From Candidatus Caldarchaeum sp. (lineage in GTDB: Archaea; Thermoproteota; Nitrososphaeria_A; Caldarchaeales; Caldarchaeaceae), in the NCBI GenBank assembly GCA_038844785.1, contig JAWBRA010000004.1, forward strand, positions 1,496 through 65,495: a stretch of DNA of 64,000 nucleotides, in the 5' to 3' direction. This document shows, one piece after another, positions 2,013 to 60,799 of this stretch (position 1 is its first letter; every line of letters begins with the position of its first letter). The position numbers and the translations under genes are program-made. The notes beneath the pieces are model-generated. The model saw only the letters and a program-made list of their open reading frames with translations, was not told where the DNA came from and searched no databases.

Positions 2013-3125
2013 ATGTATAAAGGCGGCCGCAAAGCTGTGAGCACAGTCATAGCCGCGATGATAGTAACGGGGGTTTTGCTGGCGTTGTTCAGCGGCCTCT
2101 TATCCGTTCAAACCCGCTTACATCAGGCCGAGGTTGAAGCCGTCAGAAGAGAGGCTGAGAGAGCGATGGAAGCACCGTTCCAAATATACTGGATAAACAG
2201 CACGCATGTGAGGCTCTTTAACAACCACAGCAGCGTACCAGTTATTCTAAGGTTTTGGATAACTTCAGGTGCAACGGTTTCGGTGACAAGCCTAGACCCA
2301 TCCATTTATTCGGTCGGGCCTGGAACGTTCAAAGATGTGAAGGCCGCCGACCTGCCGCGGGTAGTTAACAAGGTTTACAAAGTTGTTTCCGAGAGGGGGA
2401 GCGTTTTCGTCGTGGGTGACATGCCGTCTGAACCCTTCTCCCTCTTCAAGATGTTAGTAAGCGAAAAGCAGGTCAGGCCTGGTTTCACAAGCTCCTCTCA
2501 AGGACCGTTGACAAGCATATTGCTCGGAACCGGGCCAGAGTTCGGTGGAGGGCAGGTAAGCCTTTCATGCGTCTCAGCCTTCCCACCACCAGCATCATGC
2601 GTAGGATGGAGTATCTCGTTCAACCCATCAAGCCCTGTGTATGTTCCGTCGGGTGGAGCCTTGGTAGTAAACGTGCTGGGGAACATACCTGTCGGAACAC
2701 CTTCAGGAACATACTTCATCCGCCTCCGCGCCGACACGGGGGGTTTTGTGAAAGAGTTTCTGCTACAGGTGATGGTGGGAGATTTTACCTTCGCTGTAAA
2801 CCCCGGCTCGATTACTATAGGACGGGGTTGCGCCGGATCGGTGACTCTGTCAATAACGCCGACAAACTATGGAGAATCCATCTCCTTCAGAGTGCTCTCC
2901 GTGACTCCTGCCGACGCCAGGTTTCATTTCGCGTTCACGGCAAACCCGCTCGACCTAAGCCACGGTCAATCAAGCACAAGCCTGTTGATTTACATCAATT
3001 TCGCGACACCTAACACGGCTGTAACTAGAACGGTAGTTGTGCAGGCCTACGACGGCTTAGGTCCTTCAAAAACTGCTTCGATAACCGTAACGGTGAACCC
3101 CAGGTCTGCTACTGGAAACTGTTAG
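2013..3125 (+). CDS. large pilin-like protein with archaeal class III (type IV prepilin-like) signal peptide
   Basis: N-terminus MYKGGRKA|VSTVIAAMIVTGVLLALFSG: basic patch, Ala cleavage context, then an about 20-aa hydrophobic helix. The rest is Ser/Thr/Gly/Val-rich beta-type sequence. Confidence 0.6.
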   Translation: MYKGGRKAVSTVIAAMIVTGVLLALFSGLLSVQTRLHQAEVEAVRREAERAMEAPFQIYWINSTHVRLFNNHSSVPVILRFWITSGATVSVTSLDPSIYSVGPGTFKDVKAADLPRVVNKVYKVVSERGSVFVVGDMPSEPFSLFKMLVSEKQVRPGFTSSSQGPLTSILLGTGPEFGGGQVSLSCVSAFPPPASCVGWSISFNPSSPVYVPSGGALVVNVLGNIPVGTPSGTYFIRLRADTGGFVKEFLLQVMVGDFTFAVNPGSITIGRGCAGSVTLSITPTNYGESISFRVLSVTPADARFHFAFTANPLDLSHGQSSTSLLIYINFATPNTAVTRTVVVQAYDGLGPSKTASITVTVNPRSATGNC

Positions 3126-3228
3126 GATGGCCAAAGTAGTACCAGTCCACTATCACCGTAAAAAAAGTACAGTATATCCAAAAACCGCTCGACTCAAACT
3201 CATATACCAGAAATGCCGACCCCTCGCC

Positions 3229-3672
3229 ATGAAGGGTCGGTCTTCGGTTGGGTTAAGCCCTCTGGTTGCTGTGATACTGTTGATAGCCATAACGGTCGCT
3301 GCAGCGGTGGTGGTGGCAGGCGTTTTCTTCAACCTCAGCAGCATAGCCGGCAGAAGGCCGACAGCAATCATCGACCAGATAAAGCTCGTCGCGACCCCTG
3401 CTGGAGCAGGAACGTGGGCGGTTGTCATCAAAAACACAGGCGACGTGAGAATTACAGGCCTCTCTACTCCTACGTTCCCCGATGGATGCTCGGCGGCCGC
3501 CGGATGGACCTGGAACCCCTCAACAAACGTTAACCCCGGCGCGACCACCGCCGGCACTGGTAGCGCGTCTGGATGTACGCTAGGAAACACCTACCGTATA
3601 TCAATAACAGTGACCTTCCAAGACGGTTCAACACAGGTTTTGGCAACGGCGGTAACAGCATCAATAGCCTAA
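3229..3672 (+). CDS. archaeal type IV pilin / archaellin-like protein (class III signal peptide)
   Basis: MKGRSSVGLSPLVAVILLIAITVAAAVVVAG matches the archaellin/pilin N-terminal consensus. The listed ORF begins at 3127, but the internal Met at 3229 gives the canonical prepilin N-terminus. Confidence 0.6.
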   Translation: MKGRSSVGLSPLVAVILLIAITVAAAVVVAGVFFNLSSIAGRRPTAIIDQIKLVATPAGAGTWAVVIKNTGDVRITGLSTPTFPDGCSAAAGWTWNPSTNVNPGATTAGTGSASGCTLGNTYRISITVTFQDGSTQVLATAVTASIA

Positions 3673-4201: not shown

Positions 4202-5128
4202 TTGGCGGCAAAGACAAAGAAAGAAATACTCAAACTCCTCAAAGAAGACGAAGAATTCCGATACGCAGTAGCAGGACTCATAGGGCTGGAGGAAACCCTG
4301 AGAAGACTGGACAAACTCGACCAAAGAATGACAGAACTCCACGAACAACAGGTAAAACTCTGGGAGGAACTCAGAACCCTGAGAGAGGGCCAGGAAAAAC
4401 TCTGGGAGGAGGTCAGAAGCCTAAGAGAGGGCGAGCACAGGCTTTGGGAGGAGGTGAAAAGCCTTAGAGAGGGTCAGGAAAAGCTTTGGGAAAACCAAGG
4501 CAAGCTATGGGAGGAGGTCAAAAGCCTAAGGGAAGGGCAGGAGAAGCTGTGGGAAACCCAAAGCAAACTCTGGGAGGAGGTTAAGAGCCTTAGAGAAGGT
4601 CAGGAAAAGCTTTGGGAGAATCAAAGCAAGCTATGGGAGGAGGTCAGAAGCCTTAGAGAAGGGCAGAACAGGCTGGAGGAATCCATGATCCGCCTTCAAG
4701 ACGCCGTTACACTGCTGACTCAGGCTCACAGGGAGTTGGCGAAACAGGTTGGCGCCCTCTCCGAAACCGTTGGCTTCGGGCTTGAGGACATAGCTAAAGT
4801 CGTTGTTCCTGGCTGGCTCCAAAGGCATGAGGGAATAGTGATGGCGGAGGAGTTCGTCCGCAGATGGATAACGGTGGACGGGGAGGAGATAGAGGTAAAC
4901 CTTTACGGCGAAGGGGTGAAAAACGGCCGGAAACTAGTCATCGTCGGCGAGGCCAAGTCGAGGATATACAAGCGTGAGGTTGAGGCATTTGACGCATGGG
5001 CTGAGAAGGTATCTGCGAGCGTCGGCGGGGAAGTGTACAAGTTCATGTTCGGATACCTCATACATCCGTCAGCCGAGGAAGAGGGAAGGAGAAGAAAAAT
5101 AACGCTAATAGCGTCCTACATGCGTTGA
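4202..5128 (+). CDS. coiled-coil protein with about 9 tandem 14-aa repeats (KLWEEVKSLREGQE) and a C-terminal putative PD-(D/E)xK nuclease-like domain
   Basis: DNA-level 42-bp (and 21-bp half) repeats at about 4350-4680 with synonymous variation. C-terminus has ITVDGEEIEVNLYGEG...KLVIVGEAKSR, a D...E-x-K pattern in beta-strand context. Confidence 0.55.
   Translation: MAAKTKKEILKLLKEDEEFRYAVAGLIGLEETLRRLDKLDQRMTELHEQQVKLWEELRTLREGQEKLWEEVRSLREGEHRLWEEVKSLREGQEKLWENQGKLWEEVKSLREGQEKLWETQSKLWEEVKSLREGQEKLWENQSKLWEEVRSLREGQNRLEESMIRLQDAVTLLTQAHRELAKQVGALSETVGFGLEDIAKVVVPGWLQRHEGIVMAEEFVRRWITVDGEEIEVNLYGEGVKNGRKLVIVGEAKSRIYKREVEAFDAWAEKVSASVGGEVYKFMFGYLIHPSAEEEGRRRKITLIASYMR
4350..4680 (+). repeat. 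in-frame 42-bp tandem repeat array (about 9 units) inside CDS 4202..5128
   Basis: Repeated gggaggaggt(c/t)a(a/g)aagcct(a/t)agaga(a/g)gg(c/t)cag... units visible by eye. Confidence 0.7.
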
Positions 5129-5203
5129 GAGAATTTTAAACGAACAGCGAGGCTATCCAGTATACCCAAAAGGCGTGATTATTAATGCTACGGCTCTAAA
5201 CCT

Positions 5204-5751
5204 GGGACTGTCAACTTAAGGTCTATGGCCTGGGTCTTTCTATTCGTTGGGGTGGATAGAGTTGGGGTTGGCCTAGGCCGTCTTATAGGTTTCTTCGGTG
5301 ATAGGAATGTTTTTCCCCGTCTCAGGACGTCTCCGTGGGTTTAGGGCTGTCGGCGTTAGGCTATATGTCGAGGGGCTCAGGAGGGTAGCTGGGATGTTAT
5401 GCGAGCTAGGGTTTCAGGTAAGCCTTGAGTCTGTCAGGGGTTGGTTCCATATCTCGTCAGGAGGGCCTATGTATGGGCTGATAGCCGAGTGTATAAGGTT
5501 TCTTGAGGTGGTTAGGGTTAGGTACGCTAGTAACCCTGCCGTCTACAGGGATAGAGTTCCATGGTATGGATGGCCTATGAAGGTTCTGGGCTTGAGGAGG
5601 GTGGAGACGTTCGGCAGGAGGAACACGATAGAGTCATGGTTCAGCGGGCTGAAGAGGAGGATAAAACAGTTCAACACGTGCTCCCCAACATACAGGCCGA
5701 AGGTACCGGAGAAGTGGATAAAGGCATGGGTGTCATTAAGTTGACAGTCCC
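5204..5751. mobile_element. IS6-family insertion sequence derivative (internally deleted, about 548 bp) with perfect 16-bp terminal inverted repeats GGGACTGTCAACTTAA and 8-bp target-site duplication CTAAACCT (5196-5203 and 5752-5759)
   Basis: TIRs at 5204-5219 and 5736-5751 are exact reverse complements. The flanking 8-bp direct repeat matches IS6-family TSD length. The internal ORF has an IS6-like HTH and C-terminal N-x-IE-x7-KRR motif but lacks the DD catalytic core. Confidence 0.65.
5298..5744 (+). pseudogene. truncated IS6-family transposase (N-terminal HTH plus C-terminal E-motif region; central DDE segment missing)
   Basis: GMLCELGFQVSLESVRGWFH resembles the IS26 Tnp HTH. RRNTIESWFSGLKRRIKQFN resembles NNxIExxHxxxKRR. 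Length is 148 aa against about 230 aa for intact IS6 transposases. Confidence 0.5.
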
Positions 5752-6056
5752 CTAAACCTCGTCGCCAAACTGAAGGCTACCTCACCCTTGGCCACAGCCC
5801 GTCTCACATACCTGATGTGGATAGAAACACCTAAGGCCAGAACAAAGACTTCAACCGCTAAGCCCAGCGATATGTTGAGGAAAAACGTGAGGGGAACCAG
5901 CAGAATGATTGAAACGATTGCTTCACCGGGGTTTTCGACGGTGTTCACATATCTTCTCCGTCTTTGACTCTCCAGCGCGGTCGACGGTCCAAAATCTTTC
6001 TCGAGCTCCTCCACCATCCCAAAACCGCTCTCTAAATCTGCCCAAAAAGGCGAAAC
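5736..6056 (-). pseudogene. partial paralogous copy of the FlaJ/TadC-like membrane-protein gene (equivalent to about residues 120-250 of the 6156..7544 product), truncated by the IS insertion
   Basis: Translation ...WADLESGFGMVEELEKDFG...RRRRYVNTVENPGEAIVSIILLVPL... aligns with ...GEDLESGFGVVEKVEKYLE...WRRYVDTVETLGEAIVSIILLVPL... of the intact gene. DNA similarity is visible (5913-6060 vs 7046-7190). The stop codon is supplied by the IS terminal repeat. Confidence 0.55.
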
Positions 6057-6155: not shown

Positions 6156-7544
6156 CTAGACAAAGAGCGAAGCTATTGAGTAGGCGACGAGCGTGGCTAT
6201 TACTCCTGCACCAGCCCTCCAGACGGCTGCAACAGTCTGGTCTTCGGTCTTGGAAACCGCCACCCCCAGACTGAAGGAAACTATGAGTGCGTTTGGCAGT
6301 ATGGGTTCAAGGGACGGCGTTATGACAAGCTTTTGAACCTCACTTGAGACTTCAGGCGGTAGTGACGTGAACGGCATGATTGCGAAGCTTGAAACGGCTA
6401 TGATTGCCGCGCCGCTTGCGATGGCTAACGCGTCGTAAAGCTTCATCCTTGCTCTTGCGTTGGTGAAGCTAAGGTAGATTGTTATGGCTAGTCGGGCCAT
6501 CAGGCTAAGAGCTTCCGCGCCCAACCCGCCTAAACGAGCCAGCTTGACGGTTTCGATGGACATTCTCATGAACCGGTTCAACGGCTTTACTTCAATACCT
6601 CTCACGATAGCCTTTGCGTACCTAGCGTAGCGCGGGTCGGCAACCATCTCCAAGCTCTTGCCCACAGGGTACCCCGCCCTAAGCCGTGCCGCCACGCTGT
6701 CGAGAAGCAGGAAGGAAGACTCTCCTTCTGAAACACAACGCCTGATATATCGAAAGTGTACGAACAATCCCCAGCCCAGAAGGAGAAGACCGATGGCGGG
6801 CGGAATCATCACCAACGACGTGTTGAGAAAGAACATGAACAAAAATGCTCCAGACACGGCTATGAGAGCTGTTGAGGTGTAGACAATTATGCGTGGGATG
6901 TCAACCAGATGCATAGGCTCGCTTGCAGACGCAATAGTATAGAAGACCGCCGCAGCACCCACTGAAATGAACACGGAATAAAAGGGGGGGAAACCTCCCA
7001 ATATGCCGCCCACGACGTACATCAAAGGAACCAGTAGTATGATTGAGACGATTGCTTCTCCGAGAGTTTCGACGGTGTCGACATACCTTCTCCATCTCTC
7101 GCTCTCCCTCGATATAGATTGTTCCAAATACTTCTCAACTTTTTCCACGACTCCGAATCCGCTCTCCAAATCCTCTCCTAGGGAACCTATCAACAGAGAG
7201 AACTCGCGGCTCGGATGAACGTATTTCTTGAAGCTCTCAGCCAGAGTTGTTTTTTCCCCGACTCTTCTCAGATAACCCGCCTCATGTGAGAGCTTGGCGA
7301 TTATTTCTCGCTTATGCGCCGCCTCCGTCAAAGCATGCAGCACCGTCTTGCCGCTTCTCAAGATGATGTACAGTATCGCAAGAAAATACGTCTGCTCCCT
7401 CTCGGCCGCGGCCTTTTTCTCAGAGTCTGAAATCCTCCGTCGAAGCAAAAGAACCGCTACGGCGAATGATACAATCGATATATGAGGCCAGTAGCTGGAC
7501 ATGAAGCTGAGCAAAAAACGACCTATCGCTTGGGTTTCAAGCAT
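6156..7544 (-). CDS. FlaJ/TadC/PilC-family polytopic membrane protein (type II secretion system F-domain), pilus assembly platform
   Basis: 462 aa with multiple TM helices and two cytoplasmic helical domains. Sits in an operon with the PilB/FlaI-like ATPase. Confidence 0.65.
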   Translation of the reverse strand: MLETQAIGRFLLSFMSSYWPHISIVSFAVAVLLLRRRISDSEKKAAAEREQTYFLAILYIILRSGKTVLHALTEAAHKREIIAKLSHEAGYLRRVGEKTTLAESFKKYVHPSREFSLLIGSLGEDLESGFGVVEKVEKYLEQSISRESERWRRYVDTVETLGEAIVSIILLVPLMYVVGGILGGFPPFYSVFISVGAAAVFYTIASASEPMHLVDIPRIIVYTSTALIAVSGAFLFMFFLNTSLVMIPPAIGLLLLGWGLFVHFRYIRRCVSEGESSFLLLDSVAARLRAGYPVGKSLEMVADPRYARYAKAIVRGIEVKPLNRFMRMSIETVKLARLGGLGAEALSLMARLAITIYLSFTNARARMKLYDALAIASGAAIIAVSSFAIMPFTSLPPEVSSEVQKLVITPSLEPILPNALIVSFSLGVAVSKTEDQTVAAVWRAGAGVIATLVAYSIASLFV

Positions 7545-12410: not shown

Positions 12411-12498
12411 GCTGGAGGCAACCAGCATGACAACACTTGAGGCAAAACGTGTTGGAAACCCAAGCGACCTAACACTGGAGGCAACCAGCATGACAACA
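12411..12498. repeat. two exact 25-bp direct repeats CTGGAGGCAACCAGCATGACAACAC separated by a 38-bp unique spacer
   Basis: Copies at 12411-12435 and 12474-12498. Geometry is CRISPR-like but there are only two units and no cas genes in the window. Confidence 0.6.
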
Positions 12499-12824
12499 CC
12501 TAAGAACCCCCAAAGAAGAGAGAGGCCGGTATGTTAAATACATAGTCATGTATGGGATTGTGAGACCCATACATGTTAAAGGCTTTGTCATACCGGCTTG
12601 GGGTTTTTCTCTGCTGTCTATGGTGGTATGACCTCCAGCCTCTCTCCTGACAGCCTCTCTGATTCTTCTTATCGTTTGTTCCTCGTCTTTGGCCTTTATC
12701 CCTGTTCCTCCTTTTGATACCATCGTCAGACGCTGTAGCGTTTTTCGGAGATGTCCGTTGAATATCTTCGGTTTTCCGCTTTTCCTGTCTACCTTGTACA
12801 GTCTGAGGTAGTCTTTGATTTTTC

Positions 12825-13160: not shown

Positions 13161-13379
13161 CTAGAATATCCCTATGGGTTGAAGACGGAACACCACATTT
13201 CAGCTATGGGAAGCCTCTGTTTATTCCATCAGGCCGTCAGCCAAATTATGACAGGAGATATTGTAGAAAATGCTGTCAAACCTTCTCCAACAGGGATAAA
13301 CACCCCAACTACAACAGAATACTAAGGAAAAAACCAAGAAAAAAGAGAAAAAGAGCGTCTCAGAGCTTTTAACAAGCCC

Positions 13380-59570: not shown

Positions 59571-60799
59571 TCGCCGAACATCTCAAGGACCCCGAGGTAG
59601 TTGGCTATGATAGGCATTAGGTCGACGCCCCGTATCCTTCCAAGCCCGCCTTGCGAGCATGAGATTTCGTCAAACATATTGACCATGTCCCCCCTCACTT
59701 CAGTCCCCCACACAAGCAGCGGAACCGGGTCTCCTCGATGGTCTCCAATCTCCGAGGGAGTGGTATGGTCTCCGGTCACGCTTAAGTATGTGTTTGACGG
59801 TATGCGGTCGACCAAAGCCTCTAACGCCCCCGCTATCTTCTCTATCATTCTGACTTTTTCCAACGGCTTCCTATCATGGCTAACTGTGTCCGTGGCTTTG
59901 ACGTGGAGGAGGACGAACTCATGGGTTTTGAGGGCTTGTAGGGTGGCTTCAACCTTTCCCACGAGGTTTGTGTTAACAGTCCCCGTAGCCCCCTCTACTT
60001 CTACAACGTTGAAGCCAGCAGCCTTACAAACCCCTTTGTAAAGAGCTCCCCCCGCCACCACGGCAGCATTCAATCCATACTTTTCCTTGAAGCTGGGAAT
60101 CTTCGGCAGAACGCCTGCGCCGCGGGTGAGCAGAAAGTTGGCTGGATGCAGCCCCTTCTTCAACCTCGCCAGGTTGACTGGATTGGCTGAGAGCACATCC
60201 TTGCTCCATGCCAGAAACTTCGCTAAAACCTCTGCAGTAAAACGTGCTTCTTTGCTTCCGTCCAACGGCCTAGGCATCTGCACGGGGACACCGTTTTGAT
60301 GCGGGTCGACGTTGGAGACTTTGTGCGAGAGGCCATCGCCCCTCATGACAAGCACGCCCCTGTGCTCTACTGTGTGTTTGATGAAGATCTCCACACCGTC
60401 TATGGTTGTTTTTCCGATTTCCTCAGCCAGCTGACGCCCTTCCTCTGTAGATATCCTTCCCGCTCGACGGTCTATAAGCACGTTGTTCTGGCTGACTGTT
60501 CCGAAGTTGCATCGAAAAGCCACGTCGTTCTCCTTTAATTCAAAACCAGCTCCCAAAGCCTCGAAAGGCCCACGGCCAGTATAGTAGCGGTATGGGTCAT
60601 ATCCTAATAGTGCTAAGTGTCCCGTGTCGCTTCCGTTGGGAACGCCGGGGGAGACTACGTCGACCAGCCCTGTCTCCCCCTCAGCCGCCAGCCTGTCGAA
60701 CAACTTTGCCCGAGCAGTTTGAAGAGGGGTTAAGCCATTTAAAGCCTTGCAACGCCTGTCTCCCAGCCCGTCCAAAACAATCAAAACAGCGTTCATCAC
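59567..60799 (-). CDS. apgM: 2,3-bisphosphoglycerate-independent phosphoglycerate mutase, archaeal type
   Basis: MMNAVLIVLDGLGDR N-terminus; metal-binding Asp/His/Ser pattern typical of ApgM; 410 aa. Confidence 0.8.
   Translation of the reverse strand: MMNAVLIVLDGLGDRRCKALNGLTPLQTARAKLFDRLAAEGETGLVDVVSPGVPNGSDTGHLALLGYDPYRYYTGRGPFEALGAGFELKENDVAFRCNFGTVSQNNVLIDRRAGRISTEEGRQLAEEIGKTTIDGVEIFIKHTVEHRGVLVMRGDGLSHKVSNVDPHQNGVPVQMPRPLDGSKEARFTAEVLAKFLAWSKDVLSANPVNLARLKKGLHPANFLLTRGAGVLPKIPSFKEKYGLNAAVVAGGALYKGVCKAAGFNVVEVEGATGTVNTNLVGKVEATLQALKTHEFVLLHVKATDTVSHDRKPLEKVRMIEKIAGALEALVDRIPSNTYLSVTGDHTTPSEIGDHRGDPVPLLVWGTEVRGDMVNMFDEISCSQGGLGRIRGVDLMPIIANYLGVLEMFGE

Follow-up and report, generated by a model that had tools for sequence, protein, structure and literature searches.

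A non-autonomous, internally deleted archaeal IS6-type element of 548 bp in Candidatus Caldarchaeum, very probably inserted in its deleted form

Within the 64,000-nucleotide stretch of the Candidatus Caldarchaeum sp. chromosome analysed here (contig JAWBRA010000004.1 of assembly GCA_038844785.1, hereafter the window) lies a 548-bp element that, as our comparisons with related loci suggest, derives by deletion from an archaeal IS6-type insertion sequence (IS) and is non-autonomous, and which very probably was already deleted when it entered this site. Its two ends form a perfect inverted pair (16 of 16 positions), and the same octamer directly abuts each terminal inverted repeat (TIR), so that both the TIRs and the 8-bp target-site duplication (TSD) claimed in a first-pass annotation of this DNA were reproduced. 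The outline of the element is as follows.

5196-5203, no strand: left copy of the TSD (8 bp, CTAAACCT); a single homologous 8-mer stands at the empty site of a sister species.
5204-5751, plus strand: the whole 548-bp miniature IS6-type element, internally deleted and predicted to be non-autonomous; aligns to loci L005, L004, L134, L100 and L041.
5204-5219, plus strand: left TIR, GGGACTGTCAACTTAA, with GG tip, G at position 7 and CTGT motif.
5736-5751, minus strand: right TIR, the exact reverse complement of GGGACTGTCAACTTAA.
5752-5759, no strand: right copy of the TSD (8 bp, CTAAACCT).

These ends carry the motifs described for IS6 elements (PMC7986276 and PMC6807381), with GGGACTGTCAACTTAA falling within the 15-20 bp given for the TIRs and showing the GG tip, the G at position 7 and the cTGTt motif, and with the CTAAACCT pair supplying the direct repeats, 8 bp long, of the target. 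The same GGGACTGTCAACTTAA terminus is found, among the matches listed, on family members in many metagenome-assembled genomes (MAGs) of Nitrososphaerota; here the TIR scan of GTDB genomes yields examples rather than copy numbers, and about 1,000 chance matches are estimated for a 16-mer with two 2-fold positions in the 596 Gb covered. Within the window itself no good match to a second copy of the 16-mer was found, the best being one with 3 mismatches at 59968, which lies inside a 410-aa open reading frame (ORF) and was therefore taken as chance. Could the inverted repeat and its flanking octamer themselves be a coincidence around an unrelated small gene? The weak, below-cut-off E-value of the single-ORF family match (see below) is the only thing that speaks for this, and we regard it as so improbable that it hardly needs weighing: when the window was simulated 200 times under a first-order Markov model, perfect inverted pairs of 16 nt lying no more than 1.5 kb apart arose only 0.045 times per 64 kb, the exact flanking 8-mer multiplies that chance by a further 1/65,536, dozens of homologous elements with the same ends occur among the matches listed, and the sister species has a precise empty site.

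This empty site, for which the first-pass annotation had proposed a search, was reached through the sister-species paralogue P0030. At the syntenic locus of the sister Ca. Caldarchaeum species (L136-L138) the gene order is kept and the element is absent, with only 65 bp between both flanking genes and no family end sequences. If the 548 bp and one 8-mer are subtracted, the window is colinear with the sister locus without a gap at the junction (85.5% over 262 nt), and the empty site holds one CAAAGCCT where the window holds CTAAACCT twice. An empty site with one copy of the octamer means that we are dealing with a true insertion, and relative to the sister species the element is an insertion with an 8-bp target duplication. 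The earlier suggestion that this insertion is recent is borne out in part: it is absent from the sister species, but is carried by every contig found of the window's own population.

The coding remnants and lesions inside the element, all on the plus strand, are these.

5298-5744, plus strand: 148-aa ORF, most likely a truncated transposase relic, with a GTG start and its stop inside the right repeat.
5225-5344, plus strand: 39-aa remnant ORF, the ancestral transposase N-terminus GVGLGRLIGFFGDRNVFPRLRT.PWV, matching the N-termini of proteins P0007 and P0021.
5343-5447, plus strand: helix-turn-helix (HTH) DNA-binding region RAVGVRLYVEGL--RRVAGMLCELGFQVSLESVRGWF, with a 6-nt deletion between 5378 and 5379 (alignments to relatives).
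5450-5451, plus strand: 76-nt deletion junction, which loses ...RAGEAFSLVDRRRRGPIAVDETVI... including the first catalytic Asp (alignment columns 268-343).
5451-5480, plus strand: 30-nt block kept between the large deletions, read in a shifted frame as ISSGGPMYGL instead of NLVRRAYVWA.
5480-5481, plus strand: 56-nt deletion junction, which loses AREVGTGEVMAVQVSRGR, the strands after the first Asp (alignment to relatives).
5550-5552, plus strand: second catalytic Asp codon, D85, in YRDRVPWYG; relatives have YTDRAPWYG (protein alignment).
5631-5660, plus strand: catalytic Glu motif IESWFSGLKRR with E112 and the archaeal signature E--F---K-R (protein alignment).

As had been claimed from the sequence, the 148-aa ORF is of IS6 transposase type, and it matches IS6-family transposases and nothing else. 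Against the NCBIfam IS6 model NF033587 it scores 38 bits (E=1.2e-9), with residues 67-144 aligned to profile positions 112-194 of 202, which lies below the curated cut-off of 125 bits because the ORF is truncated; a Pfam search with the 148-aa ORF gave no match. Relatives that retain the middle segment missing here (P0007, P0005 and P0021) were found by protein search; P0007 matches the NCBIfam IS6 model at 5e-29, and a 208-aa reconstruction made of P0007 plus the C-terminal consensus matches it end to end (114 bits, profile 1-195 of 202) and also matches Pfam PF13610 DDE_Tnp_IS240 (32.1 bits; gathering score 27). Membership in IS66 was considered on account of a marginal match to Pfam PF03050 (23.5 bits) and rejected, as IS6 is favoured by the match to its NCBIfam model from end to end, by the size of the element and by its having one small ORF only. 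Moreover, the window ORF has after its Glu the E--F---K-R signature reported for archaeal IS6-type transposases (PMC6807381); I111, W114, F115, L118, K119 and R120 are invariant in the protein alignment and E112 is conserved at 90% or more, and the C-terminus reads W-I-K-A-W, i.e. W---W rather than W---F. This confirms the C-terminal motif of the first-pass annotation, which was found as IESWFSGLKRR.

Full-length relatives of the element measure 675-685 bp and have window-type ends, 8-9-bp TSDs and a transposase of about 208 aa. They include L005 (675 bp, 8-bp TSD CTCGCTTC) and L134 (685 bp, 9-bp repeat AATCCTGTT), together with the full-length copies L041 (about 652 bp, 8-bp TSD AATTCAGC) and L100 (about 683 bp), while intact transposases of 207-214 aa with 57-64% identity are encoded on short metagenome contigs (P0014, P0015 and P0017), the element of P0014 ending in GAGACTGTCAACTTAAG. 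In length neither the 548-bp element nor its 675-685-bp relatives reach the range of the family (about 700-890 bp; 696-853 bp for the archaeal members, PMC6807381, Table 5). Taken together, the ends, the duplicated target and the protein signatures indicate that the element is an internally deleted member of the archaeal IS6-type family.

Compared with the full-length relatives (DNA alignment to L005, L004 and L006, and protein alignment) the window copy lacks 76, 56, 6 and 3 nt and has gained one T, in agreement with the earlier view of a non-autonomous deletion derivative. The extra T, in the run 5340-5342 (column 151 of the DNA alignment, and seen likewise when the copies are compared), creates the TAG that closes the 39-aa ORF; it splits off the ancestral N-terminal 30 aa, so that for the 148-aa ORF only an internal start (GTG or ATG) is left, followed by some 15 codons out of frame. 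The ORF is thus a mosaic: an out-of-frame leader comes first, then an HTH short of 2 aa, then ISSGGPMYGL, a linker of 10 aa read out of frame, and last the C-terminal part (one half) of the catalytic domain, to which the frame returns because the two large deletions together remove 132 nt; in this restoration the window copy differs from its close relatives L094b and L078. The HTH-equivalent region of relatives matches N-terminal positions of the NCBIfam IS6 model (P0010 to 11-49, P0002 to 4-58). Hence the region described earlier as an IS26-like HTH is present, but with a 2-aa deletion and cut off from the N-terminal 30 aa by the extra T. Similarly, the statement that the DDE core is lacking overstates the loss: the first catalytic Asp, in an (A/V)DET motif, is gone with about 46 aa around it, but D85 and E112 remain. 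With an incomplete DDE triad in its own ORF the element is a defective derivative of a family member rather than a functional IS, and the 148-aa protein is predicted to be incapable of transposase catalysis.

We observed in addition that the extra-T lesion, TGGGTTTAGGG at 5336-5346, is common to the diverged copies L078, L123a/b and L041, and is most likely an inherited lesion. It also creates the heptamer GUU-UAG-G (5339-5345), where a +1 slip would restore the ancestral protein. Programmed -1 frameshifting at GGGTTTA was considered and rejected by frame arithmetic, since slipping by -1 would not lead from the N-terminal frame into the correct one.

That the element was already deleted when it inserted is suggested by copies elsewhere. 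L094:2799-3343 aligns across the whole 548 bp at 83.5%, and L078 (the same locus as L129 and L130) at 88.5%; each lies at an unrelated locus and each has the same two large junctions. The 76-nt junction, joining CCAT to ATCTCG, is identical in L094:2799-3343, L078, L123a/b and L125, and the second deletion comes in variants, being 54 nt in L019 and L006 and, out of frame, 55 nt (GGGCTGTATAGC) in L094b and L078. These forms belong to a nested series of sizes, 675-685, 636, 621, 548 and 316-380 bp, in which the 636-bp L019 has only the 54-nt version of the second deletion, L006, P0002 and L135 have lost an additional 18 nt, and the smallest copies (L123a, L123b and L124-L126, P0010) are of window type with a further deletion between GTCA microhomologies. 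The window-type architecture is thus present at the window locus, at L094:2799-3343 and at L078/L129, with its further-deleted descendant at two loci in L123; a search of JGI metagenomes with the 76-nt junction for more window-type copies returned only the L078 locus again (L129 and L130). The presence of the same junctions at other loci implies that the deletions were not made at the window site and that the miniature form itself was mobilised, and the simplest reading of these alignments is that a miniature lineage spread as a non-autonomous element, through repeated mobilisation in trans of progressively deleted forms.

The alternative would be that a full-length IS inserted here and was deleted in place, its likeness to L094 and L078 being due to gene conversion or to recurrent deletion at the same microhomologies. 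Recombination between family copies evidently does occur. Contig L123 holds two inverted miniature copies 2.5 kb apart, at 80-395 on the minus and 2905-3284 on the plus strand, and in L125 the left flank is that of L123a but the right flank that of L123b, which is what an inversion by recombination between the two copies would produce; L123b is itself a hybrid, with the locus and left-end deletion of L078 and the internal deletion of L123a. Nevertheless we find deletion in place improbable, considering that both large junctions are identical at at least three unrelated loci in copies that differ by 12-17% elsewhere, and that the perfect TSD and TIRs accord with the element having inserted simply, recently and in its present form. 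Nor was a full-length allele of the site seen among the contigs retrieved for the locus (L001-L003, L122 and L128), and in the window's population the adjacent 93-aa ORF has an IS-derived C-terminus in 8/8 of the contigs that encode it.

Several further short elements bear on the miniature forms of this family. In MAG SJ3.Bin70, from another Nitrososphaerota lineage, L017:6213-6390 and L030:2639-2779 are AT-rich elements without an ORF (178 and 141 bp) that have GAGACTGTCAACTTAAG and its complement at their ends and no clear TSD at either; they appear to be true MITEs (miniature transposable elements bounded by inverted repeats) with window-type ends. Elements of about 100 bp adjoin a family IS at L004:2848-2950 and at about 2690-2780 of L129, have a related but different TIR (GGCTCTGTTAACTTAGG...CCTAAGTTAACAGAGCC), and look like MITEs of a second IS6-type lineage. 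Family copies also adjoin citrate synthase and tRNA-synthetase (class Ib) genes in several MAGs (L006, L135 and L004), and at the citrate synthase locus the orientation of the element is opposite, or its flanks are exchanged, between MAGs, an IS-associated rearrangement.

Is the 148-aa ORF itself a maintained product? Truncated transposases can inhibit transposition, as do the KP repressor of the P element and the inhibitor protein of Tn5, and a protein made of the HTH and the C-terminal part could bind the ends or the full transposase and so damp transposition. The loss of 132 nt in total preserves the frame in the window copy, and other derivatives (L019, P0002/L006, P0003 and P0010) are likewise in frame and open. 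However, the closest copies of the same architecture, L094b and L078, have an extra T at the second junction that puts the C-terminal part out of frame, and both have stops or further frameshifts; L123b is frameshifted, too. Furthermore, the HTH is 2 aa short, and the ORF opens with roughly 15 codons that are out of frame. The excess of in-frame derivatives stems from the way most of them were obtained, since searching with proteins selects for open frames: among the seven copies compared in detail that were found otherwise than through their own ORF (L019, L041, L100, L094a, L094b and L078 from the TIR scan, and L123b as a side product of a different look-up) only L019 has it open. We therefore give the idea of a maintained product little credence, and selection on the miniature ORF was rejected given the frameshifts and stops in sister copies; as the ORF is broken in these, that of the window is most likely a relic without catalytic activity. 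A broader form of the idea, in which the nested and often in-frame derivatives encode trans-dominant regulators that bind family ends or poison the full transposase, as an archaeal counterpart of KP, seems to us very unlikely as well; if true, it would also explain why no intact full-length copy is seen in assembled Ca. Caldarchaeum contigs. In a lesser variant, GUU-UAG-G at 5339-5345 might support +1 recoding that reconnects the ancestral N-terminus.

Returning to insertion of the already deleted form, its genomic setting suggests that the window copy is not alone. Exact-protein look-ups place the window in Ca. Caldarchaeum MAGs (Nitrososphaerota), and an origin in Thermococcales, first considered because of the style of the sequence, was rejected accordingly. 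Five assemblies contribute contigs (L001, L003, L122, L128 and L002) that match the window with 99.94-100% identity along 5-13 kb and therefore sample one population, and the element is 100% identical in the MAG contigs L001, L002 and L003. L122 starts within the element (window 5274) and L128 stops within it (5535); all 4 SNPs that separate L122 from the window over 6.5 kb fall in the first 65 nt of L122, inside the element; L002 and L003 join an identical element and right flank to an unrelated left flank (...GGTATTCCCAA) without a TSD; and the MAG of L122 has a second family member, L135. Combined, the contig breaks, the cluster of SNPs, the exchanged flank and L135 point to at least one more near-identical copy in the genome. 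Behind the exchanged flank stands either a genuine rearrangement mediated by the IS or a join made across repeats in assembly; the primary insertion is the arrangement seen in the window, which has the exact TSD. When the reciprocal junction of the exchange was sought via the 308-aa left neighbour of the element, nothing was recovered but the arrangement of the window and one contig that breaks off within the element, and a search of JGI metagenomes with the right-junction 21-mer for empty or occupied alleles gave no matches. The left flank of L002 and L003 contains a 79-aa gene (L002:785-1046), of which a degenerate inverted copy (86.6%) lies at window 13162-13348; this gene family is small, unannotated and multi-copy, with no Pfam match.

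How the deleted element reached its site can be sketched by analogy. A full-length transposase of the family, supplied in trans, would bind the conserved GGGACTGTCAACTTAAGG ends through its HTH and make 8-bp staggered cuts in the target; by the precedent of IS26, a replicative cointegrate would form between genome copies and then be resolved by homologous host recombination, and identical or near-identical extra copies would serve as substrates for recombination and rearrangement. A number of observations weigh against this account. Among the Ca. Caldarchaeum contigs none yielded an intact helper copy, so that the search for full-length copies with the same TIR, recommended in the first-pass annotation, did turn up the 675-685-bp relatives elsewhere but no intact one there; L005, L100, L134 and L041 each have at least one frameshift, at different positions, and those relatives that are intact stem from other metagenomes and share no more than 57-64% identity. 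The NCBIfam scores remain under the curated cut-off (114 against 125 bits), the pathway of cointegrate and resolution is borrowed from IS26 for an archaeal clade, the exchanged flank of L002 and L003 might be a chimera, and gene conversion, instead of transposition, might in principle account for the spread of the shared junctions, which we take as a minor alternative. As to the missing helper, in related MAGs contigs often stop at an end of a family element (among the matches listed), which suggests that identical high-copy elements may fail to assemble, and intact high-copy elements may thus be systematically missing from assemblies.

Among known systems the family is closest to the archaeal IS6-type elements of ISfinder (ISH14/ISH29, ISC735/ISC774, ISPfu1 and ISSis1; 'clade A' of Varani et al. 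2021, PMC7986276), with which it has in common a single DDE transposase with an N-terminal HTH, short TIRs tipped with GG that have G in position 7 and a CTGT motif, target duplications of 8 bp (occasionally 9 bp), a small size, the E--F---K-R after the catalytic Glu, and a transposase stop inside or at the right repeat. The full-length members described here are, at 675-685 bp, slightly under the listed 696-853 bp, and the window copy differs in being a 548-bp defective derivative and not an IS. Neither Ca. Caldarchaeum nor Nitrososphaerota is among the archaeal IS6 host groups named in PMC7986276 and PMC6807381. Whether the archaeal clade belongs in IS6/IS26 proper is disputed (PMC7986276 and PMC6807381), Harmer and Hall placing the archaeal group outside the IS6/IS26 family in the strict sense.

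With the bacterial IS26 and IS6 proper the similarity is one of end motif (GGGACTGT... here) and of the 8-bp target duplication, while the protein similarity is distant and the bacterial signature after the Glu is E-DH---K instead of E--F---K-R. The end of IS26 itself is GGCACTGTTGCAAA. In IS26 and its relatives the flanking repeats are lost after intramolecular events or recombination, and L002 and L003 likewise lack a TSD; this exchange of flanks, and the inversion between the L123/L125 copies, would be compatible by analogy with the replicative cointegrates of IS6 elements. The IS6-family MITEs in ISfinder (MITEBth2 and MITEHarch3, 227 and 336 bp) are similarly non-autonomous, keep both IS ends and depend on transposase in trans. 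They have no ORF, however, whereas the window element, an intermediate of the nested size series, still comprises some 80% of the IS, with a truncated ORF that is open. Its copies of the same form at different sites (the window locus, L094 and L078/L129) resemble a MITE family, but with 548 bp and a 148-aa open frame it is not a MITE in the strict sense (no ORF, less than about 400 bp), to which the 316-380-bp L123a/b come closer. The KP form of the P element and maize Ds are likewise internal deletions of an autonomous element that keep the ends and can be moved in trans, and in some of them a truncated ORF stays in frame; a truncated product of the window ORF, and any regulatory activity of it, would be hypothetical.

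The element lies between the gene of a 308-aa coiled-coil protein and the 93-aa ORF mentioned above, whose position is the following.

5736-6017, minus strand: 93-aa host ORF, a T2SSF-like paralogue fragment with its 3' end replaced by the insertion.

The insertion swapped the last 13 codons of this ORF for four codons and a stop from the right repeat, which encodes its present ending GLST; without the element it would have 102 aa. An uninterrupted 102-aa allele was not found in the window's own population, and the sister species has a 68-aa version. The ORF is paralogous to, but much shorter than, the T2SSF-like gene of 462 aa next to it (6156-7544, minus strand), which lies in a T2SSE/TackOD1/T2SSF pilus-type cluster, and shares with this membrane protein 58% identity over 52 aa and a second block; it is probably a collapsed paralogue, a gene remnant. 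On the other side, the 308-aa gene (ORF 4202-5128) has tandem 42/63-nt repeats at 4349-4666 that encode coiled-coil units of LWEEVKSLREGQEK over and over; the C-terminal domain that follows is not repetitive, and the protein's Pfam matches are weak and to coiled coils only. Farther along the window, two direct repeats of 25-30 nt (CTGGAGGCAACCAGCATGACAACAC...), 63 nt apart, occur at 12412-12504 in a 1.5-kb stretch without a convincing gene, and look like a two-repeat CRISPR-like remnant or another repeat. Contigs L001 and L003 both stop at window 12883, which suggests that repeated sequence begins there.

For this particular locus the finding has little significance beyond annotation, the 148-aa "hypothetical protein" being better annotated as a transposase pseudogene or fragment. 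For the curation of MAGs it is of use to note that repeats of this family break contigs and can yield exchanged flanks, real or chimeric, in assemblies that are 99.9% identical. To the archaeal IS6-type elements it adds a compact lineage (675-685 bp) with non-autonomous derivatives in Ca. Caldarchaeum and other Nitrososphaerota MAGs, and the related loci form a natural series from the full IS through progressively deleted forms to those of MITE size, which illustrates the textbook account of how MITEs arise.

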